Positions 33,883 through 48,307 of a stretch of 64,000 nucleotides of DNA are shown here, one piece after another. Source of the stretch: Pseudomonadota bacterium (GTDB lineage: Bacteria; Bdellovibrionota_B; Oligoflexia; Oligoflexales; CAIYRB01); contig JANOTL010000115.1 of NCBI GenBank assembly GCA_031416315.1, positions 1 through 64,000 on the forward strand. Reading direction: 5' to 3'. The notes below the pieces were generated by a model. That model searched no databases. It was not told where the DNA came from and saw only the letters and a program-made list of their open reading frames with translations. Every line of letters begins with the position of its first letter. Within the stretch, counting starts at the first letter, position 1. A program made the translations under genes and the position numbers.

Positions 33883-36093
33883 TCAAGTTAGCACGGGAGG
33901 CGGAGGGCCAGGAACGTGGCGGATTTTGCCGAGCGCCGAGATCACGGCCGCGCCCGGCGCGCTGCGCGCCAAACGCACGTCGCGCACGGTCGGCTTCAAG
34001 CCCGCCGCGGCGATCTCCGTCGGCACGGCCAAAGGTGAGAGCTTGGCGCAATCAATCGAGCCAAGATCCGCCGCGCCGTGGTGGAGGGCCAGAGCGGCAA
34101 ATTTTTCCGCCGGATGCTGCGTCTTGGCGGTGCCGAGGCCGCGCGCCGGGCTCACCGTCGGGATCTCCGCCAAGGGAGCGATGATGAGAGGCACGCCGCG
34201 CGCCGCGAGGCGGGCGATCGCGATGGCACGGAGGTACTCGGTCGCCGTTACGAAGCTTCCGGAGGAAACGGTGACCGCAAGCCCAAGGAGGCCGCCGGTG
34301 TCGCCGCGCGCCTCCGCCAATTCGGCGAGCACTTGCGCTCTGCGCGCGAAGCGCTCCCAAAACGGTGCCCCGGAGCCGTTTTCAGGCGCGTCCAGCTCGA
34401 GTTTCGCGATGGTGACCAGCTCTGCGGCATGCGCGGCGCGGTGCAGGTCGAAGAGCTCGCCGGTCGTGAGATCGCGCTCGCTCTCACGTGGGCTCGACTC
34501 GACGGCGTCGACGCCCGCTTCGGCCAGGCGTTGAAAGATCTCGCTGGGGTCGACCTCGGCGGCGGTCGCGACGCGCCACAAGGCCTTAAAGCCCCAGAGG
34601 GAGAGCTCGAGGTCGGGGTACGTGTGCTGCAAGGCGAAGCAGGCTTCGATGAGCTGCGACGGATCCGCCGCCTCGTGGTCGCCGTCGACGCAGAGGTCGA
34701 GCGAGATCCCATGCGGCGCCGATTGGAAGCGCTCGCGCGCCTCGTCGATCTCTTTGGCGACGGCCGAAACGAGCTCGCCCGGCGTGGCTCCCGGCCGCCA
34801 TGAGACGACGACGGTCGGCGCGTAGCTGCCTTCGCCCGCATGCGCCGTGGCTTCCCGCGTCGCGAGCGCCAAGCGGCTGAGCTCGGCGATCGGAAGCGTC
34901 GCGGCCAAGATCGCCAGCTCGGAGGCCTCGAGCGCGTCGCGGCCGATCTCCGCTTTCGTCACCAGGGCCTGCGCGGCCGCGAGATCTTTCTCGGTGCCGT
35001 GGGCCTCTCCCGAAGGCGTCCCGATCGCCCGGTAGAGCGTGTCGCGCTCGCACGGGATGCGACCGGCTTTGCGGATCATGCTCTCAAGGAAGCCGCGCTC
35101 CATCGCCATGCCCGAGCGGCCGCCGGCCATGCGCGAGATCTTCTCCTCGAGGACCGTGCCGTCGAGGTCGTTCGCGCCGTAGTTCAGCGCGATCTGCGCC
35201 ACGTCCTGGCCGAGCATGACCCAGTAAGCTTTGAGGTGCTTGAAGTTGTCGAGGTAGAGGCGGGCGACCGCGATGGTCTTCAGGTCGTCGTAGCCGAACG
35301 TGTAACGGTCGATCCCCATCTCGTTCTGGAAGGGCTGGAACGCGAGCGGGATGAAGGCGTTGAAGCCGTGGGTCTCGTCCTGCAGCTCGCGCAGGCGACG
35401 CATGTGGTCGACGCGGTGCTCGTACCGCTCGATGTGGCCGTAGAGCATCGTGCAGTTCGAATGCATGCCTAGATTGTGCGCGGTGCGGTGCGTGTCGATC
35501 CATTGCTCGGCCGACACCTTGGTGTCGCAGATCGCGTCGCGGATCTCCGGGTGGAAGATCTCGGCGCCGCCGCCGGGCAGAGAGCCCAGTCCGACCGAGC
35601 GTAGGTCCTCGAGCGTCTCTTTGATCGACTTCCTGGCACGGCGCGCGAGCCAGTCCAGCTCGACGGCCGTGAAGGCCTTGATGTGCACTTGCGGGAACGC
35701 CGTCTTCACGGCAGCGATCATGTCGCGGTAGTAGTCGTACTTCCAACGCGGGTGGAGACCTCCGACCATATGGACTTCGGTCGCCCCCTGCGCCACCGCT
35801 TCACCGGCTTTCGTCACCATCTCTTCTATGGTGTAGGCGTAGCCGCCCTCCTCGCCCGGCTTGCGCGAGTATGCGCAAAACTTGCAGCTCAAAGCGCAGA
35901 TGTTCGTCGGGTTGATGTGGCGGTTGACGTTGAAGAAGACGACGTCGTCGTTTTTCTTGCGGTTCTCGGCGTCGGCCAGGCGACCGATCTCGGTCAGCTC
36001 GGGCGACTCGAAAAGGGCCAGGGCGTCGGCCTCGGAGAGGCGCTGGCCCATTTCGAGCTTTTTCGCGACGACGTCGATGATGTGTTGCGTCAT
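33883..36093 (-). CDS. mqnE: Aminofutalosine synthase MqnE (radical SAM) fused to a degenerate CofH/MqnC-like domain
   Basis: NRHINPTNICALSCKFCAY, EVHMVGGLHP, HIKAFTAVE, SLPGGGAE, HLKAYWVM, GANDLDGTVLEEKI; about 370 extra C-terminal residues. Confidence 0.88.
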   Translation of the reverse strand: MTQHIIDVVAKKLEMGQRLSEADALALFESPELTEIGRLADAENRKKNDDVVFFNVNRHINPTNICALSCKFCAYSRKPGEEGGYAYTIEEMVTKAGEAVAQGATEVHMVGGLHPRWKYDYYRDMIAAVKTAFPQVHIKAFTAVELDWLARRARKSIKETLEDLRSVGLGSLPGGGAEIFHPEIRDAICDTKVSAEQWIDTHRTAHNLGMHSNCTMLYGHIERYEHRVDHMRRLRELQDETHGFNAFIPLAFQPFQNEMGIDRYTFGYDDLKTIAVARLYLDNFKHLKAYWVMLGQDVAQIALNYGANDLDGTVLEEKISRMAGGRSGMAMERGFLESMIRKAGRIPCERDTLYRAIGTPSGEAHGTEKDLAAAQALVTKAEIGRDALEASELAILAATLPIAELSRLALATREATAHAGEGSYAPTVVVSWRPGATPGELVSAVAKEIDEARERFQSAPHGISLDLCVDGDHEAADPSQLIEACFALQHTYPDLELSLWGFKALWRVATAAEVDPSEIFQRLAEAGVDAVESSPRESERDLTTGELFDLHRAAHAAELVTIAKLELDAPENGSGAPFWERFARRAQVLAELAEARGDTGGLLGLAVTVSSGSFVTATEYLRAIAIARLAARGVPLIIAPLAEIPTVSPARGLGTAKTQHPAEKFAALALHHGAADLGSIDCAKLSPLAVPTEIAAAGLKPTVRDVRLARSAPGAAVISALGKIRHVPGPPPPVLT

Positions 36094-36106
36094 GGGGGAG
36101 TGCTCC

Positions 36107-36958
36107 TCAGTCGATGAGCCAGGCGCGGTCAGGCCCGAGGCTTCGGCACAAGCCGGCCTCGGCGCCTACGGCGAAGAGGCGCTGAACCCCGGCGCGGGCG
36201 TCCTGCGCGAACTTGAGACTGCGCTCGTTCACGTACATGGAGATGTATTGGTCGCCGAGCGCCGCGTCGATCGCAGCACCCGACATCGTGAGCGCTTTTG
36301 CGAGCGTCGCCTCGCGATTTGCCAGGCCGTACTCGACGCTTTCGCGCATGATCGCGTTCACGTCCTTGATCACCGCGTCGCCGAGACCGCGACGGATGGC
36401 GTTCGCGCCGAGCGGCAAGGGCAGCCCGGTGGCCGCGTGCCAGAGCTTGCCCAAATCTCCGAGCTTCACGAAGCCCTTCGACTCGCAGTCGAGCTGCAGC
36501 TCGTGAATCAAGATTCCCGCGTCGACCTCTTCGGCCTGGACCGCGGGACCGATCTTGGTGAAGTGCATGGGGACCGCGGTGAAGCTGCCGATCAGGCCGC
36601 GCGCGGCGAAAAAGGCCGAAGTCTTCAGGCCCGGGACGGCGATACGCTTGCCTAAGAGCTCCGCTGGGCGCCGGAGCGGCGAGCCTTCGCGGACGATCAA
36701 GGCGGGACCGAATTCGTCGCCAACGCTGGCGCCGACGGGCATCATCAGATAGCGGTCGGAGAGGTCCGGATACGCCGCGACGCTGATGGCCGTGACGTCG
36801 TAGGTTTCGCGCATCGCGGCCTCGTTGAGCTCCTGGATGTCGGCCGAGGTGAACTCGAACTCGTAGCCCATGAGGTCGACGGCGCCGTCCTGCATGGCGC
36901 GCACCATGAAGGCATCATCCGTGTCGGGGCTGTAGGCGATGGTGATCTTCTGGCTCAA
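36107..36958 (-). CDS. mqnD: 1,4-dihydroxy-6-naphthoate synthase (MqnA/MqnD family)
   Basis: IAYSPDTDDAF, DIQELN, GILIHE, DLGKLW...LPLPLG, YISMYVNE; TTG start overlapping the mvk stop. Confidence 0.85.
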   Translation of the reverse strand: MSQKITIAYSPDTDDAFMVRAMQDGAVDLMGYEFEFTSADIQELNEAAMRETYDVTAISVAAYPDLSDRYLMMPVGASVGDEFGPALIVREGSPLRRPAELLGKRIAVPGLKTSAFFAARGLIGSFTAVPMHFTKIGPAVQAEEVDAGILIHELQLDCESKGFVKLGDLGKLWHAATGLPLPLGANAIRRGLGDAVIKDVNAIMRESVEYGLANREATLAKALTMSGAAIDAALGDQYISMYVNERSLKFAQDARAGVQRLFAVGAEAGLCRSLGPDRAWLID

Positions 36959-37932
36959 AGCTCGACTCCGTAGACGCGGTTGCGACCGAGGCTCTCGCGC
37001 AAGCGGTTGAGGTCGGAGTCGGCGCGCGCGGGATCGAGGAGCGCGAGCACGCAGCCTCCGCCGCCGGCGCCGGTGGATTTGGCCGCCTTGGCGCCGAGGC
37101 TCACCGCGAGCTCCGCGAGCTCTGCGAGCGGGCCGCTAACGACGCCGGCGTCGGCTAGGTGGCGGCCGGCTTCGTTCATCGCGGCGGCGACCGTGTCGAC
37201 TTTGGAGGCGGCGAGGCCTGCGGCGACGTCGTCGGCGAGCGCGTCGAAGCGCGCAATGCGGCGCGCGCCGTGCTCGCCCTGGAAATAGGGGGCCGCCACT
37301 TGGATCATCGTGGCGGTGGAGGAGCGCACGCCGCTATCTAGGAGCGCGAAGCGCCAAGGCGAGCGGACGGCGAGCAAGGTCGGCGCCTCGCCCTTCCGGA
37401 AAAAGGTGACGCGCTCGGCGGCGACGACGGCCGTGTCCAAGCCGGAGGGATTGCCGTGGAAACGCCGCTCGAGCGTGTTGCCGAGGGCGGCGAGCTGCGC
37501 GGGCGCCAAGGTCACGTTCTTCGCGGCCGCCAATGCCTTCAGGATGACGATGCAGAGCGAGGCGGAGGATCCCAATCCGGCGCCGATGGGCACGGTCGAT
37601 TGGCCCTCGAGATCCATCGCGAAGGGGCTCAGGCCGAGGAGCTCGCGCGCCTCTTTCACGACGCCTTCGAGGTGCTCGGTGACCGCGCGGCCGCCGAGCG
37701 AGATGCGCACGTCCGGCTCGCCCTGCGCGTTGCGCCGATCCGTGAGCTGTAGGCGCAGGCTCATCGTCAGGCTCGGCACCGGCATGGCGACGGCGCGGGC
37801 ACCGTAGACGACGGCATGCTCGCCGACGAGGATCGCCTTGCCGACGGCGGCCTTGCGCACGGCTTTCATCGTTTCGGGGACGGCGGCTGGGGCCGCATAG
37901 TCGTTGGAGAGCTCGAGTGGCGGAACGGTCAC
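36955..37932 (-). CDS. mvk: Mevalonate kinase
   Basis: GKAILVGEHAVVYG, PIGAGLGSSAS, FHGNPSGLD, KSTGAGGGGC. Confidence 0.9.
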   Translation of the reverse strand: MTVPPLELSNDYAAPAAVPETMKAVRKAAVGKAILVGEHAVVYGARAVAMPVPSLTMSLRLQLTDRRNAQGEPDVRISLGGRAVTEHLEGVVKEARELLGLSPFAMDLEGQSTVPIGAGLGSSASLCIVILKALAAAKNVTLAPAQLAALGNTLERRFHGNPSGLDTAVVAAERVTFFRKGEAPTLLAVRSPWRFALLDSGVRSSTATMIQVAAPYFQGEHGARRIARFDALADDVAAGLAASKVDTVAAAMNEAGRHLADAGVVSGPLAELAELAVSLGAKAAKSTGAGGGGCVLALLDPARADSDLNRLRESLGRNRVYGVEL

Positions 37933-38963
37933 GACGGCAAATCCTCTAGAGGATGGGAAGCGAGGCTCACGCCCTCGCCGATTTGATCTTGCAAAATGGA
38001 GCGGACGGCGGCGCCGAACCGCGCCTGGATCTTCGCGGTCACGGTGGCCGCGTCTTCCGGGCGACACAGAACGTGGACGTTCGGCCCCGCGTCGATGGTG
38101 AAATAAGCCTCGAACGAGCCGCGGGCGCGCTCCTCGCGCAGCCAAGCGCACAGCTCGACCGTCGCCGTCTCGAGGTAGCGCACCGGCGGCTCGGCCGTCA
38201 TGATCACGGCGTGCATCTCCAGGGCCTCGTGCTCGATCTCGATGCCGAGGCGCTCGAAATCGCCGGCGGCGAGGGCCGTCTCGATGCGTTTGAGGCGCTC
38301 GGGAAGGCCTGCGAGGCGCGGTCCGAAAAGGGGCGAGGTCCAGGCATGGCGGTGCGCCTCCGAGGAGGAGACGCGCTTTGCCTCCGCCTGTAGGACGACG
38401 ATGAGATCGGCGAGGGGAAAGGCCTCGGGCGCGAGGATGGGCCGCACGTCCTGACGCTCCGGCGCCGGACCGGCTTCCCACAGGACGTAGCCGCCGAAGA
38501 GGCTGCGGCAGGCGCTGCCGGAGCCCAGGCGCGCGATCGAGGCGAGGCGGGCGCGGGTGAAGCCGCGGCCTTCGAGCTGCGCCATATCCGGCGCGCCAAG
38601 GAGCGCCGCGGTACCGGCGAGCGTGAGCGCCGCAAAGCCGCTCGCACTGCTGGCGATGCCCGCGGCCGAAGGGAAGGTGTTCTGCGTCTCGATGCGCAAA
38701 TGGGCCGAAGCGCCGGTCTCACGGCGCAAGAGGTCGAGGTGGCGCATGACGCGCGCCGCTTCCTTCGCCTCGCGCGCGAGGCGTTGACCGCCGAATACGA
38801 ACTCGTCATGACCGGAGTCGACAATCATCGCGCGCGTCTCGGTGCGCGCGGCCGTCAGGGTCATCGAAAGAGAGTCGTTGGCGGGCCATTGGCGCGCAGC
38901 ATCGCGTTTTCCCCAGTATTTCACCAGGGCGATGTTGCTCGGGGCGACGGCGACGACGCTCAT
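37929..38963 (-). CDS. mvaD: Diphosphomevalonate decarboxylase
   Basis: APSNIALVKYWGKRD, AAGIASSASGFAA, ARLGSGSACRSLFGG, FTIDAGPNVH. Confidence 0.94.
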   Translation of the reverse strand: MSVVAVAPSNIALVKYWGKRDAARQWPANDSLSMTLTAARTETRAMIVDSGHDEFVFGGQRLAREAKEAARVMRHLDLLRRETGASAHLRIETQNTFPSAAGIASSASGFAALTLAGTAALLGAPDMAQLEGRGFTRARLASIARLGSGSACRSLFGGYVLWEAGPAPERQDVRPILAPEAFPLADLIVVLQAEAKRVSSSEAHRHAWTSPLFGPRLAGLPERLKRIETALAAGDFERLGIEIEHEALEMHAVIMTAEPPVRYLETATVELCAWLREERARGSFEAYFTIDAGPNVHVLCRPEDAATVTAKIQARFGAAVRSILQDQIGEGVSLASHPLEDLPS

Positions 38964-40006
38964 TCGACCAAGACTCCTTCGCTGGCGAAGCGCGCATTGA
39001 GCGGGTCCCAACCCATGCCATACAGCGCGAGCGTCGCCGGCGCGAGCCGCGTCTTCTCGCCGATCAGGAGGAGCGCATCCTCGCCGCCGGCGCCGGTGGT
39101 CTTGAAGGTCCAGGTCTCGCCCTCGCCCGGCAGGCGCTCGAGCGTCGAGCGCAGGTGCACGGGATCGTGCGGCGAGCCCGCGAAGATCGAGCGGTGCGTC
39201 GTCACGATCTCGATCAGCTCGCGCATGCTGCGGTGATCCTGGCGCTCGGAGAGGGCGACGCCGAAGGCCTGCGTCAGCTCCTCCGACACGGAGAGCACGG
39301 CGTCGAGGCGGCCTTCGCGCTCGAGCCAGGCCAGAGTATCGAGCATGACGGGGCCGGTCGGCGCGCCGCGGCCGCCGACGTAAGGGTGGACGATTTCGCG
39401 CAGGGGAAAGACGAGCTTCGGATAGCTCGACACCTCGACGGGCCAGGTGGCCTCGCTGTCCAGCTGACCGGAGCCGGGCCGATGCGTCGCCGGATTGCGG
39501 AAGCTGACGACGCCGCCCATCATTTGCGTCGCGACGTCGTAGCCGGAGGCCATCGATTGCGACAGCCGTTGGAGGCGCCAGGCCTCGCGCGCCAAATCCT
39601 GCGGCTGGAGGCGCTTGTCCTCCGCCGCGAGCGCGTTCGCCGCGGTCAGGACGCCCGCGCGCAAGGCCGACGAGGTGCCGACGCCGTGCTCGACGCGCAG
39701 CTCGGAGGTGACGGTGAAATGCACGTCAGCGAGCCCGAACATCTCCAAGGCCCGCGACGCGGCCTGCGCGAAGGGTTCGTTTTGGAGCTCCGGCGCCGGT
39801 TTTTCGCCGGCCGCCGGGACGGTCTTCTCGTCGGCCCAGATCTCGCTCGACAGCTTGGCGCCGCCCGAGACGGTGCCGGCCGCGAGCTGCAGGGCGGTGA
39901 CGGTGAGGCGCTTGTCGAGGGTGCCCGACAAGGCGCGGCCGCCGAAGAGGACGGCGTACTCGCCGGCCAGCATGATCTTTCCCGGCAGTGAGGCGACGGC
40001 TTTCAT
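38960..40006 (-). CDS. Phosphomevalonate kinase (GHMP family)
   Basis: PGKIMLAGEYAVL, GVGTSSAL, ASGYDVA, KTTGAGGED; lies inside the mevalonate operon. Confidence 0.82.
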   Translation of the reverse strand: MKAVASLPGKIMLAGEYAVLFGGRALSGTLDKRLTVTALQLAAGTVSGGAKLSSEIWADEKTVPAAGEKPAPELQNEPFAQAASRALEMFGLADVHFTVTSELRVEHGVGTSSALRAGVLTAANALAAEDKRLQPQDLAREAWRLQRLSQSMASGYDVATQMMGGVVSFRNPATHRPGSGQLDSEATWPVEVSSYPKLVFPLREIVHPYVGGRGAPTGPVMLDTLAWLEREGRLDAVLSVSEELTQAFGVALSERQDHRSMRELIEIVTTHRSIFAGSPHDPVHLRSTLERLPGEGETWTFKTTGAGGEDALLLIGEKTRLAPATLALYGMGWDPLNARFASEGVLVE

Positions 40007-40008
40007 GG

Positions 40009-41328
40009 TCAAGAAGGCTCCGTCCCGCCGGAGGGCGGAGCGAGGCGAGACAGGAGGTCGAGGTTGCCGCGGTGGAGGCTCATGTGACCGCGTTGGATGC
40101 CTTCGGACGCCAAAGCGCGCAAGGCCGACAGATTCTGGGCCAGTCCGACCGCGGTGACGATCTCGGCTAAGACGCGCGCCGAGGGCGAGCCGAGGAGCTT
40201 CAGGGCGGCCTTCGCCGTTGGATGCAGCTTCGTGACGCCGCCGACCGTGCCGACGGCCATCGGCAGCTCGAGGACGCCGTGGAGATCGCCGCCAGCCGTC
40301 TTCGTCCAGACGGCGAGCGGCCGGTACTGGCCGTCGCGCGCCGCGTACGCGTGCGCGCCGGCCTCGACGGCGCGCCAGTCGTTGCCGGTCGCGATGAGCA
40401 CCGGATCGATGCCGTTCATCACGCCCTTGTTGTTGGTCGCGGCGCGGTAAACGTCGTGATGCGCGAACTGGTAGGCCATGACGATGCGGTCGATCACCTC
40501 GGCACCGGAAAACTCGTGCGAGTCGAGCGCGTTCTCGGGCACCGTGCAGGTGACGCGCGTGACGCGGCGGTCGGTGAGATTCGTGAGGATGCGCAGGCCG
40601 ACGTCGACGGGGAAGAACTCGGGGAGGACGGTCGAGAGCTTTTCGCACATCGTGTTGACGATGTTCGCGCCCATCGCGTCGCCGGTGTGGATGTGGAGGT
40701 GGAAGACGAGGGACTTGATCTCCGGGATCAGCCGGAAGGTCAGGTCTTGGGCGCCGCCGCCACGCTCCATGAGGCGCTCCTGCCCGCGGTTCGCGAAAGC
40801 GAGAAGCTCCGCCTTGCGTTCGGCGAGCATCGCCTCGACCATCGCCGGCGTGACGGTGTCGTCGCGCAACAGGAGCTGGATCTGACCGGTCATGATCGGA
40901 TCGGTCGAGCTGGCGGTGAAGCCGCCGCCGGCGCGCGCGAGCTTGGCGCCGTGGCTCGCGGCCGCGACGACGCTGGTCTCCTCCACGGCCATCGGCACGA
41001 GGACGTCCGAGCCGTTGACGAGGAAGTTGGTCGCGACGCCCAAGGGAAGCGCGTAGACGCCGACCGCGTTCTCGATGAAGACGTCGACCAGCTCCGGCGT
41101 CAAGGCGCCGAAGCGGCAGAGGGCGTCGGCGTCGGCGTTGCCCAAGCCGGCGAAGATCTGCGCCACCTTCAGGCGCTCGCCGATCGGGAGCTCGTAAAAG
41201 CCGGGGAGCCGCGAGGACAAGGCCTGCGCACCGCCGAGCTTGGGATCGTCGCCCACGGGCCTTCCCGGCAAGGGGCGCCGCGGTGCGGTCTCGATCTCGG
41301 GCACGTAGCCTTTGGCCTCGTCTTTCAT
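40009..41328 (-). CDS. mvaA: Class II HMG-CoA reductase
   Basis: IENAVG, PMAVEETSVVAAAS, DAMGAN, RAATNNKGVMNG, TGNDWRA, GLAQNLSALRALASEGIQRGHMSLH. Confidence 0.94.
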   Translation of the reverse strand: MKDEAKGYVPEIETAPRRPLPGRPVGDDPKLGGAQALSSRLPGFYELPIGERLKVAQIFAGLGNADADALCRFGALTPELVDVFIENAVGVYALPLGVATNFLVNGSDVLVPMAVEETSVVAAASHGAKLARAGGGFTASSTDPIMTGQIQLLLRDDTVTPAMVEAMLAERKAELLAFANRGQERLMERGGGAQDLTFRLIPEIKSLVFHLHIHTGDAMGANIVNTMCEKLSTVLPEFFPVDVGLRILTNLTDRRVTRVTCTVPENALDSHEFSGAEVIDRIVMAYQFAHHDVYRAATNNKGVMNGIDPVLIATGNDWRAVEAGAHAYAARDGQYRPLAVWTKTAGGDLHGVLELPMAVGTVGGVTKLHPTAKAALKLLGSPSARVLAEIVTAVGLAQNLSALRALASEGIQRGHMSLHRGNLDLLSRLAPPSGGTEPS

Positions 41329-41349
41329 GATTGCGCCCCTGAGGTCTCG

Positions 41350-42687
41350 TCAGTCGGTGAAGTCGCTCAACATCTCTTCGAAGCGGCGCGTCGGTCGAAC
41401 GCGGGCCTTCAGGCTCTCCAGGTTCCTCGCGCCGCTCGCCAGCATCGCGGTCTTCAGGCCTTGCGCCAAGGTTTCGAGCACGGCGAACGGCGCCTCTTCG
41501 CTCGCCAATGCGGCGCGGAAGATCGGCAGGCCCACGCCCGCCACGCGGGCGCCCAAGCCCACGGCCTTGGCCACGGCGAGGCCGTCGCGCACGCCGCCGG
41601 TCGCGGCGAGCTCGAGCTTCGGTAGACGCCGGTGCAAGGCCGAGACGGCCAAGGCCGTCGGCAGGCCGAAATCGCGAAAGGTCTCCGCGACGGCCCGCGT
41701 CGCCGCCGACTGCGCGCGCAGCCCTTCGATGTAGCTCCAGGAGGTGCCGCCCTTGCCGCCGACGTCGACCGCAGAGACGCCGCACTCGAGAAGGCGCGCG
41801 GCGCTCAGCGGATCGAGCCCGCCGCCGACCTCTTTCACCAAGACCGGCACGCCGAGCTTGCGCGCGACCTCGCCGATCCGATCGGTGAGGCCGCGGAAGT
41901 CGCGGTCGCCTTCGACCTGCACGATTTCCTGCAGCACGTTCAGATGAATCGCCAAGGCGTCGGCGTCGATCATCGCGACGGCGCGCTTGCAGTCGTCGAG
42001 GTAGGTCGGGGAGCGCAGCTGGCCGATCCCGAGGTTGCCGATCAGGAAGACTTTCGGCGCCTCGCGTTTGACCGCGAAGATCGAGGCGTGCTCCGGATGC
42101 TCGAGCGCGATCCGCTGCGAGCCGACGCCCATCGGGATGCCGAAGTGCTGCGCCGCGGCCGCGAGCCGGGCATTGATCTCAGCGCCGCGCAAAAGGCCGC
42201 CGGTCATGCCGGTGATCAAGAGGGGGAGGGGGAAGGCGCGCCCGAGAAAGCGAGTCTCGGTGCGCAGATCGTCCCAGGCGAGCTCCGGCAAGGCCGAAGG
42301 CCTGAGGATCACCTCGCTGAAGCCGGTGAAGCGGTCCTTCGCCTCGACGTCCATCGACTCGCAGATGGCGATGTGCTGGCCCTTGCGTACGAGGGTGAGG
42401 AGATTGTCGAGCTCGCGCAGGTCCTCGGGCTCGACTTCGGCCTCGACCTTCAGGCCCTGGCTCGAGCCGGCGAACGCCGCGGTGCCGAAGGCCACGCGCA
42501 AAGTGAAGCTCCGGCCTTCGCCGAAGGCGACGGTGAGGCGATCGCGCGCCGTCGCGCGCAGCTCGCTCGGAAACTCGAGCACGAGATGATCCACCGCCAA
42601 GGCCGTCACGAAGCCGGCGCCGGCGCGATCGGCGACGAACGGCAAGGGCGGCCGCAGCGTCACGAAGCTGCGCGCTGGAGTGGACAT
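41350..42687 (-). CDS. fni: Type 2 isopentenyl-diphosphate isomerase with a ~100-aa N-terminal extension
   Basis: RKGQHIAIC, ITGMTGG, GVGSQR, HLNVLQE...EGDRDF, VKEVG, GGTSW. Confidence 0.92.
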   Translation of the reverse strand: MSTPARSFVTLRPPLPFVADRAGAGFVTALAVDHLVLEFPSELRATARDRLTVAFGEGRSFTLRVAFGTAAFAGSSQGLKVEAEVEPEDLRELDNLLTLVRKGQHIAICESMDVEAKDRFTGFSEVILRPSALPELAWDDLRTETRFLGRAFPLPLLITGMTGGLLRGAEINARLAAAAQHFGIPMGVGSQRIALEHPEHASIFAVKREAPKVFLIGNLGIGQLRSPTYLDDCKRAVAMIDADALAIHLNVLQEIVQVEGDRDFRGLTDRIGEVARKLGVPVLVKEVGGGLDPLSAARLLECGVSAVDVGGKGGTSWSYIEGLRAQSAATRAVAETFRDFGLPTALAVSALHRRLPKLELAATGGVRDGLAVAKAVGLGARVAGVGLPIFRAALASEEAPFAVLETLAQGLKTAMLASGARNLESLKARVRPTRRFEEMLSDFTD

Positions 42688-42803
42688 CGAGAGCTTCCGG
42701 AAAGGGCCTAGGACTTGAAGCGCCGAATGGCGTAAAATGTCATGGCGTGTCCAGGCGTTAGGGCAGCCTAAGCTATGCGCCCTGAGGTCTTCCGTCAATC
42801 GAT

Positions 42804-43610
42804 TTGGAGTCTTTGATGATTTCGATGCGCGGCGTCAAAATGTCGTTCGGCGGGGTAAACCTGCTTAGCGACATAAGCTTTTCGGTGGCGAAGGGCGAGC
42901 GCATCAGCCTGATCGGGCCGGGCGGCTGCGGCAAGTCGACGATCCTCAAGATCCTGCTCGGGCTGATGAAACCGGACGCCGGCGAGGTCAGCCTGATGGA
43001 CGTCGACATGACCAGCGCCAAGGAGGAGGAGAAGCAGGTCGTCCTGCGCAAGGTCGGGATGGCCTTCCAGCAAGGTGCGCTCTTCGACTTCATGACCGTG
43101 CGCGAGAACCTGATCTTCGCCATGGAGAACATGACGGAGCTCGACGTCAACGCGATGGACGCGCGCCTGAAAAAGCTCCTGCAAGGCGTCAAGCTCGGTC
43201 GAACGGAGTACATGTACCCGTATGAGCTCTCGGGCGGCATGCAAAGGCGCGTCGGCATCGCGCGCGCGCTCTGCACCGAACCGGTGATCGCGATCTTCGA
43301 CGAGCCGACCTCGGGCTTGGACCCCGTGACCTCGACGATCATCTTGAATATGATCGTCGAGCTCGGCGGCAAGTCCGACGAGCACGCGCAGATGGTCGTC
43401 ACCTCGAACGTCGAGATCGGCATCCGCTTCGCCGACCGCCTCCTCGTCGTCAACGAAGGCAAGGTCGTCGCCGACGGACCGTGGCGCGAGCTCCTCGTGA
43501 CCGGACCGGAATGGGTCCGGCACTTCCTGGGCGTCCGCTTCATCGGCCTCGATCTGGAGTACGCGCACGAGTTGAAGCTTCCGCAAGCATTCATCGATAA
43601 GCATTGGTGA
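42804..43610 (+). CDS. ABC transporter ATP-binding protein, MlaF/Mkl-like
   Basis: GPGGCGKS, FQQGALFD, ELSGGMQRRVGIARAL, FDEPTSGLDP. Confidence 0.88.
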   Translation: MESLMISMRGVKMSFGGVNLLSDISFSVAKGERISLIGPGGCGKSTILKILLGLMKPDAGEVSLMDVDMTSAKEEEKQVVLRKVGMAFQQGALFDFMTVRENLIFAMENMTELDVNAMDARLKKLLQGVKLGRTEYMYPYELSGGMQRRVGIARALCTEPVIAIFDEPTSGLDPVTSTIILNMIVELGGKSDEHAQMVVTSNVEIGIRFADRLLVVNEGKVVADGPWRELLVTGPEWVRHFLGVRFIGLDLEYAHELKLPQAFIDKHW

Positions 43611-43717
43611 GCAGGTAGTTCCTCTGAGGGCCTCTCGGGGCCTTCGGGCCTCCGAGTTCATAGGCGGGCGGCGAAGTCCGAAGAGCTTTCCGGGAAACCC
43701 CGTGGAGCTATCGGTAC

Positions 43718-44605
43718 TTGAACGCCGCCAACCGCATCGTCCGCTACCTCTTGCCCGTCGTCATGTCGGCGACCGTGCTGTCTGCGCTCGGCGTGACCAC
43801 CCTCGTCGCGGAGTTCACGCCCGCGGACCGGCTCGTCTCGACCCTGTGGATCGTCGCATCCTTCGTCTTGGCCGGCGCCGTGGCCTCCGTGCCGGTACTC
43901 TACTGGCTCGCGCGCCGGCTGACCCAGGAGATCGCGACGGCGCTGGAAGCCGGCGTTCCGCTCGACGAATTAAACAAAGATCAGTTTGCCGCCAGAGGCG
44001 CGCTGGCGGCCGTGACCCGCGGCCCGGTGACGATCGTCTTCGCCAGCGTCGAGGGCCTTTCGCGGGTGATGGAGGTGGTGACGCCCGAGGTCGCGGCCGA
44101 GCTTTTCGACGGCCTCCTGCGCCTTTGCACCGACGTCGTCGGCGAGCACGGCGGCGTCGTCGAGCGCTTCACCGACCGCGACGTCGTCTTTGTCTTTCCC
44201 GCGCGCCCCGACGCCTCCGCCGAGACGGCCGCGACCGAGGCGGCGTTCCGGCTGGCGCAGCTCATTCCGGAGATGAAGCTCAAGATTCCCGGCGAGGCCG
44301 GCCTCCTGCGCGGCCTGCGCTTCGCCGCCGGCGTCACGGCGGGCAGCGCCGTCATGGGCAAGCTCCACGGCCAGCCCTTGATCCTGGGCGAGATGGTGCA
44401 GCAAGCCCGCGCGATCGCCAACGCCGGGCGGGCGCGGGGCGTCTTTCTCCTCGTCTCCCACTACGTGCAGACGCGCCTGAAGCCCGGCTTCCGCGTCGAG
44501 CCGGCCGGCGCGATCAACGAGATGCTGGCGCATCAAAAAGTCGACGTGTACGCCGTCACCGGCCTCGCGCCGGCCGGCGAAACGCCGACGCCGCGGGCGG
44601 GCTGA
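43718..44605 (+). CDS. 2-TM protein with a degenerate class III cyclase homology domain
   Basis: VTIVFASVEGL, HGGVVERF, RFAAGVTAGSAVMG, ILGEMVQQARAI; TTG start. Confidence 0.65.
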   Translation: MNAANRIVRYLLPVVMSATVLSALGVTTLVAEFTPADRLVSTLWIVASFVLAGAVASVPVLYWLARRLTQEIATALEAGVPLDELNKDQFAARGALAAVTRGPVTIVFASVEGLSRVMEVVTPEVAAELFDGLLRLCTDVVGEHGGVVERFTDRDVVFVFPARPDASAETAATEAAFRLAQLIPEMKLKIPGEAGLLRGLRFAAGVTAGSAVMGKLHGQPLILGEMVQQARAIANAGRARGVFLLVSHYVQTRLKPGFRVEPAGAINEMLAHQKVDVYAVTGLAPAGETPTPRAG

Positions 44606-44608
44606 GCC

Positions 44609-45997
44609 ATGAGCCGCCCGCGCCAAAGCCGCATCGCACACCTCTCGGCGGACGTCGCGGATAAGGTCCGCGCCACGCCTTCGCGCATCGGGTCCTTGCG
44701 CTTCAAGCCTTCGGTCGAGCGGCGCTTCCACGAGTACGCCTTCGAGCAGAACAAAAAATGGTTCATGACGGGCACGCTCGTCGTCGCCGTGATCTTCCTC
44801 CTCTTCCTCGCGGTGATGTACCTGCTGGCGCCGGACGGCATGCCGCCTTTCGCCGACACCGTTCCCTACATCGCCGCCGGGCTCTTCCTGCTCGGCATCG
44901 GCCGTAAAGTCGGCGAGCGCACGAAGGTGGCGCAGAAACAGCTGATCGGCTGGATCGTCGCCTGCTTCTGCGTCCTCGTCGGCGTGTCGTTCTCGCGCCT
45001 TTCGGCGATGGCGTCGATGGACCGGGCGCGCTACGGTTTCGGCCTCGTGATCGTGTTCACCATCGCGATCTATGCGCTCGTTCAGCTGCGCGGCGTGCAA
45101 GCGCTCGTGGCGGGGTGGGGGACGGGCATCTGCCATGCGGTGCTCGCGTACGGGGCGGACTACTATCAGCGCGACGATTTCCTGCAGGTCTGTTCCTACC
45201 TTGCGCTCACGAACCTAATGGGCACGGCGATCGCCTATACGATCGAGCGCCAAAACCGCCTCTTCTTTGGCACGATGCTCGACGCCTCGGCCGCCCACGA
45301 GCGCACGAAAAGGCTCTTGCGGCAGCTCCTGCCGGCGCCGATCGCCGACCGCATGCTCGCGGGCGAGGCCCGGGTCGCCGATCAGTTCGATTACGTGACG
45401 GTGATGTTCGCCCACGTGCACGGCATACGGGTGCTCGCCGAGACGAAGAATCCGAAGGCACTGGTCGCGCTCCTCAACCGGATCTTCGGCGCCTTCGACG
45501 AGGCCGCGCAGGCGACGGGCATCGACAAAGTGAAGTCCTCGGGATCGCGCTACCTTGCGGCCGCCGGCCTCGCGGGGCGCCGTCCGAAACGCGGCGAGCC
45601 TTCGGGCGCCACCCGCGTCGTGCGGTGCGCGCTCGAGATGCGGCGCGCGTTCGACCGCGCCAAGATCGAGTCCGGCTTGGACGTCGCGCTTTCAATCGGG
45701 ATCCACACCGGGCCGGTCGTCGCGGGCGTGATCGGGAAGACGCGCCTCGTCTATGACATGTGGGGCGATACGGTGAACGTCGCGAGCCGTATGGAGAGCG
45801 TCAGCGCGCAGGGCGAGACGCGGCTCTCGACCGAGGCAGCGGCGTGGCTCCTCGACGAATCGGTCTTGAGCGAGCCGCAGACGGTCGACGTGAAGGGTAA
45901 AGGAAAAGTGCAGACGCACGTCCTCCTCGAAGGGGAGGCGAGCGCGGCTGGAGCGGCTACCACCGCGGCTCCGCCGAAGTTCGAGGGGGCCGCATGA
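44609..45997 (+). CDS. Multi-TM class III adenylyl cyclase subunit, C2-like (metal Asp residues lost; K, D, N, R kept)
   Basis: RLLRQLLPAPIA, VMFAHVHG, KVKSSGSRY, GIHTGPVVAGVIG, YDMWGDTVNVASRMES, VKGKG. Confidence 0.88.
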   Translation: MSRPRQSRIAHLSADVADKVRATPSRIGSLRFKPSVERRFHEYAFEQNKKWFMTGTLVVAVIFLLFLAVMYLLAPDGMPPFADTVPYIAAGLFLLGIGRKVGERTKVAQKQLIGWIVACFCVLVGVSFSRLSAMASMDRARYGFGLVIVFTIAIYALVQLRGVQALVAGWGTGICHAVLAYGADYYQRDDFLQVCSYLALTNLMGTAIAYTIERQNRLFFGTMLDASAAHERTKRLLRQLLPAPIADRMLAGEARVADQFDYVTVMFAHVHGIRVLAETKNPKALVALLNRIFGAFDEAAQATGIDKVKSSGSRYLAAAGLAGRRPKRGEPSGATRVVRCALEMRRAFDRAKIESGLDVALSIGIHTGPVVAGVIGKTRLVYDMWGDTVNVASRMESVSAQGETRLSTEAAAWLLDESVLSEPQTVDVKGKGKVQTHVLLEGEASAAGAATTAAPPKFEGAA

Positions 45998-47430
45998 GCG
46001 AGGGCGGCGGCAAACGCTCCCAGCTCGGGCGCACGGGGGATAAGGGCAAACGCTCCGAGTTCGGCCGGCGCGAGGACACCGGCCGGCGCTCTGAATTCAG
46101 GCTTCGCCACGATACCGGGGTCCGCGGCGACGCCACGCAACAGAACGCGCCGCAGCAAGACGGCGCCCTGCGCCGGATCATCTCCGAGACGGCGATGCGC
46201 TTCTCGACCGTCCGGCTCCAGCCGCTCCTCGAGGAAGAGTACGATTTCACGGCGGCGACCCAAAACGCGCGCTCGACCTTCGTCGGCATCGTTTTGATGA
46301 TCCTCATGATCGCCGTCCACGCTTTCGCCTCGCACCTCCTCGATCCGATCGGTCTCGCGCCCTTCTTCGAGGTCGCGCGAAGCTACCTCACGATGCTCGT
46401 CGTCGCCGTCGTCACGGCGGTGCTCTTCGTGCGATTGCGGCCGGAATGGCTGGCGCGCGTCGCGCCTTCGTTCGGCGCCTTGGCCCTTTTCGTCGTCGCG
46501 CAGACGACGCTCCTCGCGGTCTTCGCCGGGGACCTCGAGCGCCGCCAGTTGGGATTCGCGGTCTGCGAGCTCTTGCTGATCGTGATCTACATGCTCTTCC
46601 GCTTCCGGCCGTTCTTCGCGTGCTTCACCGGCTGGACGACGACGATCTTCTACCTCTATTCGGCGAAGGCCTACGACGTCTATCCCGAAGACCGTTTCGT
46701 GCAGATCTCGATGTATCTCATCATCATGAATCTGATCGGCATGGTGGTCGCCTTTTTGGTCGAGCGCCAGGAGCGCCAGATCTTCCTGACCTTGGTCGGC
46801 GTCTCGAACGAGAAGGCGCGCGCCGACTCGATGTTGGCCAACGTCCTGCCGGAGACCGTCGCCGAGCGCCTGAAGAACGGCCGGGAGGGCGGCATCGCCG
46901 AGGCGCACCCCGAAGTCACCATTCTGCAGGCCGATCTGGTCGGCTTCACGGCTTTGGCCGCCAAGCTCTCGCCGGTCGACCTCGTCAGCATGCTCGACGA
47001 GCTCTTTACCGAGTTCGACCGCATTATGGCGCGCCACGGCGTTGAGAAGGTGAAGACCGAAGGCGACGCCTACATCGCCGCCGCGGGCCTGCCTTTGCCC
47101 ATGCACCACCACGCGCTGCGCGCGGCCTCGGCCGGACTCGACATCGTCGACGCCGTGCACGCCTTCGCCAAGGCGCGCGGCATCTCGATCGACGTCCGCG
47201 TCGGCCTCGACACCGGCTACGTCGTCGCCGGGGTCATTGGCAAACAAAAACAAGTTTATGACATTTGGGGCGGCCCGGTGACGGGCGCCGCCCGCCTGGA
47301 GGCCCAGGCCGAGCCCGGGGCCGTCTTGGTCTCCGCCGTCACCGCCGAGCATCTCGACGAATATCTGACCCTGACCGGCGGCCCGGCGGTTTTCCGCCTC
47401 TTGCGCGCCGGGGGGCAAACCGCGGTATAA
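45994..47430 (+). CDS. Multi-TM class III adenylyl cyclase subunit, C1-like (metal Asp residues kept; catalytic Asn replaced by Thr)
   Basis: MLANVLPETVA, ILQADLVGFT, KVKTEGDAY, VVAGVIG, YDIWGGPVTGAARLEA. Confidence 0.88.
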   Translation: MSEGGGKRSQLGRTGDKGKRSEFGRREDTGRRSEFRLRHDTGVRGDATQQNAPQQDGALRRIISETAMRFSTVRLQPLLEEEYDFTAATQNARSTFVGIVLMILMIAVHAFASHLLDPIGLAPFFEVARSYLTMLVVAVVTAVLFVRLRPEWLARVAPSFGALALFVVAQTTLLAVFAGDLERRQLGFAVCELLLIVIYMLFRFRPFFACFTGWTTTIFYLYSAKAYDVYPEDRFVQISMYLIIMNLIGMVVAFLVERQERQIFLTLVGVSNEKARADSMLANVLPETVAERLKNGREGGIAEAHPEVTILQADLVGFTALAAKLSPVDLVSMLDELFTEFDRIMARHGVEKVKTEGDAYIAAAGLPLPMHHHALRAASAGLDIVDAVHAFAKARGISIDVRVGLDTGYVVAGVIGKQKQVYDIWGGPVTGAARLEAQAEPGAVLVSAVTAEHLDEYLTLTGGPAVFRLLRAGGQTAV

Positions 47431-47461
47431 GAGGCCTTCTCTCCAGGAGGGCTCGAGTTCC

Positions 47462-48307
47462 GTGTATTCCTTAATGAAAACACTCGCGTGGGGACTCGGG
47501 CTCTTGACCCCGCGCCTCACCGGGGCTCTGGCCAAGCTGATCGCCTTCGTGATTTTCGATGCCATCCGGCTGCGCCGCGATTTGATGCTGCGGAATCTCG
47601 GCCTCGCCTTCCCCACGATGCCGGAGGCGCAGATGCGTCGCGTCGCGCGCGCCTCGGTCGAGAACTTCGCCCTGACGGCTTTCGAGTTCCTGCGCTCGAA
47701 GCGGGTCGACATCGCCGGTCACATCGAGCTCGACGGCGTGGAGCACATCCGCACTGCGCTCGACCGCGGCCAGGGCGCCTACATCCTCTGCTTCCACCTA
47801 GGCAACTGGGAGGCCATGGGCGCGAAGTGCACGCGCGTCCTGACGCCGTCGCACGTTTTGGTCAAGAAGGTCGGCCGCGGCGGGGTCGAGCGCTTCGTCA
47901 GTGAGCTCCGCACCCAGAACGGCTTCTACGGCGTCAAACGCGAGAAGAAGGGCGACGGCTACAACGCCATCCGCGACATCTTGGCCAGAGGCGAGATCGT
48001 CGGCTTCGTCATGGACCAAGCCCGACCGGGCGAGCCCCGCCTGCCCTTTTTCGGCGTCCCGGCCAAGACCAACACGAGCTTCGCGGCCATCTGGCGGAAA
48101 ATCCCGGCCCCGATCATCCCGGCCTTCATCGAAAGGACCGGGGTCGGCCGCCACACTTTGCATTTTTTTCCCGAGGTGAAGCCTACGGTTACGCAGGATC
48201 CGGAGGCCGACGTCCTGCGCCATTCGACCGAGTTCAATGCGGTCGTCGAGACGCACGTACGCAAGCACCCCGATCAGTACTTCTGGATGCACAACCGGTG
48301 GAAGTGA
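47462..48307 (+). CDS. Lipid A late acyltransferase (LpxL/HtrB family)
   Basis: HLGNWE, VMDQ, PFFG, HPDQYFWMHNRWK. Confidence 0.88.
   Translation: MYSLMKTLAWGLGLLTPRLTGALAKLIAFVIFDAIRLRRDLMLRNLGLAFPTMPEAQMRRVARASVENFALTAFEFLRSKRVDIAGHIELDGVEHIRTALDRGQGAYILCFHLGNWEAMGAKCTRVLTPSHVLVKKVGRGGVERFVSELRTQNGFYGVKREKKGDGYNAIRDILARGEIVGFVMDQARPGEPRLPFFGVPAKTNTSFAAIWRKIPAPIIPAFIERTGVGRHTLHFFPEVKPTVTQDPEADVLRHSTEFNAVVETHVRKHPDQYFWMHNRWK

Follow-up and report, generated by a model that had tools for sequence, protein, structure and literature searches.

The 64,000-nucleotide stretch analysed here (the window; positions 1 to 64,000 of contig JANOTL010000115.1, assembly GCA_031416315.1, from a Pseudomonadota bacterium of the order Oligoflexales) contains two adjacent plus-strand genes that encode membrane proteins related to adenylyl cyclases (ACs). 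Gene A (44609..45997, 462 amino acids) resembles the C2 half, and gene B (45994..47430, 478 amino acids) the C1 half, of a mammalian AC. As the initial annotation had recognised, the two are paralogs whose stop and start codons share an ATGA tetranucleotide (45994..45997, +), which may couple their translation; the open reading frame (ORF) coordinates agree with this overlap, and the proteins share 29% identity across 400 aligned positions. Each contains a single PF00211 domain (151.5 and 149.4 bits, respectively, against a cut-off of 21.9), and the presence of the Asp of the YDxWG motif (D383 in A, D423 in B) together with the absence of the class IIIb Thr assigns both to class IIIa. In A, the cyclase domain is preceded by six hydrophobic segments (44774..45235, +; amino acids 56-209, as judged by hydropathy) and a helical, transducer-type segment. 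B begins with a low-complexity stretch of Arg/Gly/Asp-rich imperfect repeats (45994-46170, +) that varies in an ortholog of about 90% identity, followed by five or six transmembrane (TM) segments, a helical segment and the cyclase domain. An earlier count of about six TM helices in each protein thus holds for A, but in B only five were called from hydropathy (94-256) and the sixth was deduced from the alignment with A. The LLP/VLP segment that had been likened to a transducer aligns with its equivalents in the mycobacterial cyclase Cya and in ACs.

The catalytic residues are distributed unequally between the two proteins. In A, the sequence H269-V-H271-G-I-R274 (45413..45430, +) replaces the D-I-V-G-F-T metal/P-loop motif, and K309-S-S-G-S313-R314 (45533..45550, +) retains the adenine-selecting Lys and has Ser for the second metal Asp. 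The triphosphate-binding Arg, present in 333 of 343 canonical domains, is replaced by S362 (45692..45694, +). The base-selecting Asp, the ribose Asn and the transition-state Arg (D383, N390 and R394; 45755..45790, +) are all intact, as is K429 (45893..45895, +), the Lys of the VKGKG loop between β7 and β8. B retains the first metal Asp (D314; 46933..46935, +), the second within K354-T-E356-G-D358 (47053..47067, +), and the triphosphate-binding Arg (R402; 47197..47199, +). Its E356 occupies a normally hydrophobic position, at which Glu was found in none of the 343 canonical domains. In the helix D423-I-W-G-G427-P428-V-T430-G-A-A-R434 (47260..47295, +) R434 is retained, the Asn is replaced by Thr, and three further conserved positions are changed, with the equivalents of D427, T428 and S433 among the changes seen in the conserved-column comparison. 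All twelve residues on which the initial annotation had relied (H269, K309, S313, D383, N390 and R394 in A; D314, K354, D358, D423, T430 and R434 in B) were found at those positions, and the split extends to the triphosphate residues: A lacks the Arg and keeps the loop Lys, whereas B keeps the Arg and lacks that loop. The resulting signatures are H,S,K,D,N,R,K for A and D,D,K,D,T,R,- for B.

The same division is apparent when losses are counted. Conserved columns were taken from a profile of 121 class IIIa domains, 8 on the metal/P-loop side and 16 on the Asn/Arg/Lys side, and A and B were compared with the 343 canonical domains, absent loop positions being scored as lost. A has lost 5/8 columns on the metal/P-loop side (H269, H271, I273, R274 and the S313 region) and 0/16 on the other; B has lost 1/8 and 8/16, respectively, including the whole Lys loop, and a B ortholog from the same genus shows the same two counts. 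Canonical domains lost on average 0.18 of the 8 and 0.62 of the 16 columns. The best 120 matches of A comprised 119 canonical domains and one A ortholog, with the same outcome for B, and 60 loci of other Oligoflexales genomes contained 64 class III domains scoring above 120, of which 62 were canonical and 2 partial; because these comparison sets were picked by score, they lean toward canonical domains.

In class III cyclases, as excerpts of PMC2576301 describe, one monomer provides the two Asp and the triphosphate-binding Arg, and the other provides the Asn, the Arg and the β7-β8 Lys. Because these sets are assigned to opposite monomers, an A:B dimer is expected, by analogy with this established mechanism, to contain exactly one complete site. 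Neither A nor B carries all catalytic residues in one chain, as Rv1625c does; what is present is the complementary split of mammalian C1 and C2, with R434 of B as the single exception. We therefore favor, with a probability of roughly 75%, the explanation that A and B form a heterodimeric 6TM+6TM AC that combines a single active site with a degenerate pocket and is convergent with the mammalian enzymes. A 6TM class IIIa gene would have been duplicated in tandem within the genus, after which the copies would have lost opposite halves of the site. Co-translated, A and B would assemble into a heterodimer with 12 membrane helices, in which B would give D314 and D358 (for two metals), the P-loop and R402, and A would give K309 and D383 (for the choice of adenine), N390, R394 and K429. 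The K309/D383 signature points to ATP as the predicted substrate, which the complete site would convert to cyclic AMP (cAMP). The symmetry-related pocket would be non-catalytic, possibly regulatory, and the two unlike membrane domains would together make up a single asymmetric receptor. The proposal of the initial annotation, that A is dead alone, B is weak alone and the two together make one catalytic site and one degenerate pocket, thus gains support from the residues and can be extended to those that bind the triphosphate. Judged from these sequences, A/B appears to be a real, conserved two-gene membrane AC, and its pairing is probably obligate.

A third gene, C (43718..44605, +; start codon uncertain), absent from the initial annotation, ends 3 nt upstream of A. 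It encodes a class IIIb-like pseudo-cyclase domain, which lacks the first Asp, the Asn and the Arg, together with two TM segments; the domain assignment comes from a PDB match (E about 2e-5) and an Atlas score of 0.93 to PF00211 clusters, with no match in Pfam. In another genome of the same genus (G001), a gene C ortholog about 50% identical lies downstream of the same ABC gene, and a B ortholog 58% identical, with Ala at the Asn position, lies upstream of the same acyltransferase gene. The ABC and acyltransferase genes adjoin without the cassette in two further genomes of the family (G003 and G011). The cassette was found in 2 of 12 family genomes, both of one genus. A and B each have one ortholog of about 90% identity in Logan carrying identical substitutions. 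The A ortholog and the B ortholog were each found on a contig of 5478 bases and, given this identical length, are likely to be adjacent. A search of genome contigs gave no relatives of A; metagenome contigs gave none for the B alignment and 0 matches to a B-specific DNA pattern.

A and B are two ORFs in different frames, and they are likewise separate in the ortholog set; no fused form occurred among 2733 longer candidates, which is weak evidence. Two Logan contigs, spanning 43400-45313 and 45288-47800, show 0 differences to the window, an agreement that is not independent because that run may itself be the source. As far as could be tested, the locus is not an assembly error, and the orthologs of about 90% identity share its substitutions. 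A promoter and terminator scan gave no signal above chance.

Conservation bears on whether A and B are ordinary redundant duplicates in decay, complementary by accident. Their narrow distribution and the long branch of A (0.77-1.03 in the quick trees below) would fit such decay, but the frames are open, and A keeps 16/16 columns on one side. Moreover, the catalytic domains are more conserved than the membrane parts: identity to the closest orthologs is 179/184 (A) and 161/164 (B) in the catalytic domain, against 187/215 and 175/199 in the membrane part. The B domain is identical to that of G001 at 122/164 positions, and two intact cyclase controls at 123/179 and 129/181; conservation of the half-dead domains among orthologs is thus no lower than that of intact cyclases. 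Accidental decay seems to us hardly credible.

As to origin, the membrane region of A has that of B as its best match among 567 segments and vice versa, with scores of 64-71 bits to each other or to the ortholog and <=35 bits to other families, which points to a local tandem duplication. Quick LG+G4 trees of 107 and then 117 domains, hand-picked from several hundred and with the seven catalytic columns dropped, both put the two proteins within the bacterial single-domain cyclases, at nodes that lack starred support. A tree with an A+B clade was as good as the free tree (log-likelihood 0.6 higher). It has to be asked whether A and B could instead share the ancient duplication that gave rise to eukaryotic C2 and C1, and so be a split relative rather than a convergent analogue. 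The best PDB matches are AC9, AC5 and AC8, with B fitting C1 better and A fitting C2 slightly better, and the AC5 and AC8 matches reach into the membrane region. In addition, neither a clade joining A to metazoan-like C2 (p 0.067) nor one joining B to metazoan-like C1 (p 0.25) was rejected by the approximately unbiased (AU) test, "metazoan-like" being assigned by motif, with a single cluster having a named member, coral AC9. Nonetheless, the full-protein PDB scores of the mammalian enzymes sum two domains, single-domain scores favor the mycobacterial Cya, and the reciprocal membrane matches, the trees and the restriction to one genus weigh against common descent. We regard it as very unlikely, the AU results notwithstanding. 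The initial annotation had allowed for an analogue or a relative; on the present sequence evidence, convergence with the mammalian enzymes, not descent, is likely.

A GTDB pattern scan for cyclases without the second Asp gave 56 loci, 46 of them with a cyclase domain there; the pattern is blind to A itself and to changes of Asp to Glu, Gly, Ala or Val. Ten genes were strictly C2-like, i.e. they kept Asn, Arg and loop Lys, a definition set after the data had been seen. Six have an adjacent paralog, and five of those partners lack Asn and/or Arg. The five complementary pairs are L115 and L117 (Chitinophagales), L136 (a betaproteobacterium), L141 (Ignavibacteriales) and L121 (Flavobacterium); L115, L117 and L136 all have 5-6 TM segments, and L141 is of the receiver type. 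Adjacent complementary pairs, for which the initial annotation had proposed a search, occur also in Bacteroidota, Ignavibacteria and a betaproteobacterium. Fisher's test of 5/10 versus 0/62 (p=1.8e-5) is descriptive only, because the two sets represent different phyla, a single genome contributes two of the five pairs and the strict definition was post hoc. The N-terminal regions of the partners are best matches within their own pair or genome, and the pairs occupy separate regions of the tree. At E<=1e-65, 120 further genomes from the family of L136 yielded no relative of that pair. Two genomes (G126 and G127) have a complementary pair as their sole domains at E<=1e-30. Of 28 loci from the family of genome G127 (Ignavibacteria, L166-L193), 13 hold a pair of receiver-cyclase genes: eight C1+C2, two C1+intact, two intact+intact and one intact+C2, with none in which both genes lost the same half. 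The rest of the 46 pattern-scan loci were fragmented (3) or otherwise degenerate without a neighboring cyclase (33).

Several loci met in these searches deserve mention. L121 contains three tandem cyclases, one intact, one C2-like and one C1-like, the last of which shares with B the Thr in place of the Asn and carries a C-terminal extension of ~190 amino acids. Tandem intact+intact 6TM class IIIa genes, a possible precursor state, occur in three genomes of the same order as the host genome (L046, L047 and L056, in G076, G079 and G077). About 29 loci in the range L106-L161 (e.g. L108 of Acaryochloris marina, L143 and L151) encode widespread ~700-amino-acid pseudo-cyclases without a neighboring cyclase; the second metal Asp is missing from these, and in most cases so is the Arg or the loop Lys, and a dCache-HAMP arrangement is Pfam-confirmed for L108 only. 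In betaproteobacteria, two solitary membrane class IIIa genes (L135 and L145) are dead on both sides, the second Asp being replaced by His and the Asn by Ser. Two-domain membrane cyclases of protists include intact+intact and intact+near-intact forms (P0244 and P0245 of Diphylleia, P0251 and P0390 of Entosiphon, P0242 of Ceratiomyxa), and both domain orders are found among them, C1-C2 in 47/150 and C2-C1 in 44/150 matches. One bacterial metagenome-assembled genome locus (L131) shows metazoan-like cyclase motifs in pieces and may be eukaryotic contamination.

The host genome has 25 PF00211 matches, five of which are intact single-domain class IIIa genes, and its degenerate class IIIa domains all belong to complementary couples: A/B, a fused protein on contig C21 and a truncated paralog of the latter on contig C153. 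The fused cyclase (L013; C21:2675-5374, +) is a single ORF of about 873-892 amino acids with the order TM-C1-like-TM-C2-like, as in mammals. Its first domain keeps both Asp and has Lys/Gln for Asn/Arg; its second has Tyr for the second Asp. The two halves are sisters (SH-aLRT, a Shimodaira-Hasegawa-like approximate likelihood ratio test, 98-99 in the quick trees), which indicates a second duplication separate from that of A/B. The paralog (L014; C153:64728-66590, -) is 62% identical to the C21 protein, lacks its 5' part and begins inside the first domain; a putative tRNA-like sequence adjoins it, and putative transposase-like ORFs lie nearby. Elsewhere, one 64% identical fragment (P0243) was found, and the C21 protein was not found in G001. 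A search with it recovered two apparently bacterial fused membrane cyclases, MCO4763075.1 (P0246, Myxococcales), with both halves intact, and the JGI protein P0247, in which one half is intact and the other C1-like and which has MASE8 anchors; both are possible intermediates. The host genome also has 15 matches to cyclic nucleotide (cNMP)-binding domains, so that cAMP would have readers.

Alternatively, A and B might not cooperate with each other but act as pseudo-enzymes, i.e. ligand sensors or dominant-negative partners, of the intact class IIIa enzymes, gene C being a third of this kind. The five intact genes are consistent with such a role, as are the fully dead gene C, which belongs to the same cassette and is conserved in G001, and the high proportion of degenerate, partnerless loci in the pattern scan (about 33/46). 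However, A and B come from overlapping genes, have sister membrane regions and show mirror-image losses; moreover, G126 and G127 hold only the complementary pair. This possibility appears very unlikely.

Other observations weigh against an obligatory A:B enzyme. A is known from only one further sequence, whose adjacency to the B ortholog is deduced, and it was not found in G001, where C and B both end at contig ends. The five intact class IIIa cyclases are alternative partners for A or B. Among the ten strictly C2-like genes four have no partner in view, and when the loop Lys is ignored 13/19 C2-like genes have no nearby partner and 6/19 have one. Finally, loss of the Asn need not abolish activity, as excerpts of PMC4886424 report for Rv1900c, among active cyclases that lack it. 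Because R434, K354 and D423 are retained throughout the three known B orthologs and the Asn is sometimes dispensable, a B:B dimer may be partly active. B would then be a weakly active homodimer, and A a pseudo-subunit that raises or lowers its activity and is not required, an arrangement consistent with the failure to recover A in G001 and with the Ignavibacteria pairs that are C1-like+intact (2/13) or intact+intact (2/13). We consider this unlikely, though it is the most serious of the alternatives. B has lost the Lys loop and the D427, T428 and S433 equivalents in addition to the Asn, and there would be little reason for A to keep its half intact unless that half served catalysis. Glu356, at the pseudo-twofold axis, may also disfavor B:B; it lies in a loop facing the partner across the dimer axis, with R314 of A in the matching loop, and one may speculate that these residues influence the choice of partner. 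An A:B heterodimer has a precedent in engineered Rv1625c (PMC4821796, in excerpt), whose D300A subunit shows no activity by itself but forms an active enzyme with the R376A subunit.

In such a heterodimer, the second pocket would be lined by H269, H271, R274, S313 and R314 of A and by K354, D423, T430 and R434 of B, with no metal ligands. The initial annotation had equated this pocket with the forskolin site. T430 and S313 indeed align with T500 and S1035 of AC6, which are forskolin contacts (PMC10135528, in excerpt), but N503 of AC6 corresponds to Ala433 in B. The likeness is weak, because T430 is Ala in the ortholog from G001 and A fills the pocket with His and Arg; as a functional claim, the equivalence was set aside, since the Thr is not conserved. 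The basic lining would suit an anionic ligand rather than forskolin. A bolder and rather doubtful extension is that bacteria have repeatedly re-invented the design of the animal membrane AC and that this genome holds two such inventions, made independently, the A:B pair and the fused chain. In the spare pocket of A:B, basic residues of A (H269, H271, R274 and R314), together with K354, D423 and R434 of B, would then have taken over from the metal ligands. An anionic metabolite, for instance an adenine nucleotide, could bind there as an allosteric effector without metal, much as forskolin binds at its own site in the animal enzymes, and gene C might encode a third, dead subunit competing for the dimer interface.

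Upstream of the cassette, the minus strand of the window (33883-42798) contains menaquinone genes (MqnE, above cut-off, with a C-terminal extension of ~370 amino acids) and genes of the mevalonate pathway, namely a class II HMG-CoA reductase that scores above cut-off and a flavin mononucleotide (FMN)-dependent isomerase-like gene with an N-terminal extension of ~130 amino acids.

Fused cyclase domains are known in bacteria from soluble AC (sAC)-like proteins, in which two such domains are joined to STAND/TPR regions. Like A:B, they are single-site pseudo-heterodimers, but they are soluble and fused, belong to another subclass and have other regulatory domains. Excerpts of PMC4821796 and PMC9552081 describe the bacterial class III cyclases as homodimers; the latter, a 2022 review, calls fused dimeric species unknown in bacteria, which is the form taken by the TM-C1-TM-C2 chain of C21, and poses the advantage of duplication and fusion as a question. 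No description of a natural two-gene bacterial cyclase heterodimer was found in the literature searched; the text of PMC2447327 does mention heterodimers, and subscription reviews may already report such pairs. The A/B locus, the fused C21 protein and the graded series elsewhere (intact+intact, intact+half-dead, complementary, fused) offer expressible bacterial models for the advantage of duplication and fusion, the degenerate second pocket and the role of two unequal membrane domains, without G proteins.

Three known systems resemble A/B to different degrees. Soluble guanylyl cyclase of animals likewise consists of two paralogous gene products, α and β, that form a heterodimeric class III catalytic unit (PMC2576301, in excerpt). 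However, it is soluble, heme-regulated and GTP-specific, whereas A and B are membrane-bound with a Lys/Asp adenine signature; neither its Glu/Cys guanine signature nor H-NOX domains occur in A/B, in which PF00211 was the only domain found. Mycobacterial Rv1625c/Cya (7yzi, 4p2x), the source of the best single-domain PDB scores, has the same subunit architecture of 6TM anchor, helical/transducer segment and catalytic domain, and its D300A + R376A pair mimics the A:B arrangement, but Cya pairs symmetrically with itself and so has both sites intact, whereas A and B are natural half-sites. Mammalian AC1-9 (8sl3, 8buz, 6r3q, 1azs/1cjk) are also of class IIIa, with 6TM and a helical segment per half, and have the metal Asp pair and the triphosphate Arg in one half and Lys, Asp, Asn, Arg and Lys in the other. 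As had been noted from the outset, the substitutions are the same, with Ser at the second Asp (A) and Thr at the Asn position (B) as in AC5. On the other hand, A/B is encoded by two genes with the C2-like one first, unlike the single TM1-C1-TM2-C2 chain of mammals; the transition-state Arg is still present in B, the Ser/Thr of C2 give way to His/Arg in A, and the origin is probably independent. Thus, A/B probably works like the mammalian pseudo-heterodimer, yet is probably not a member of that family.

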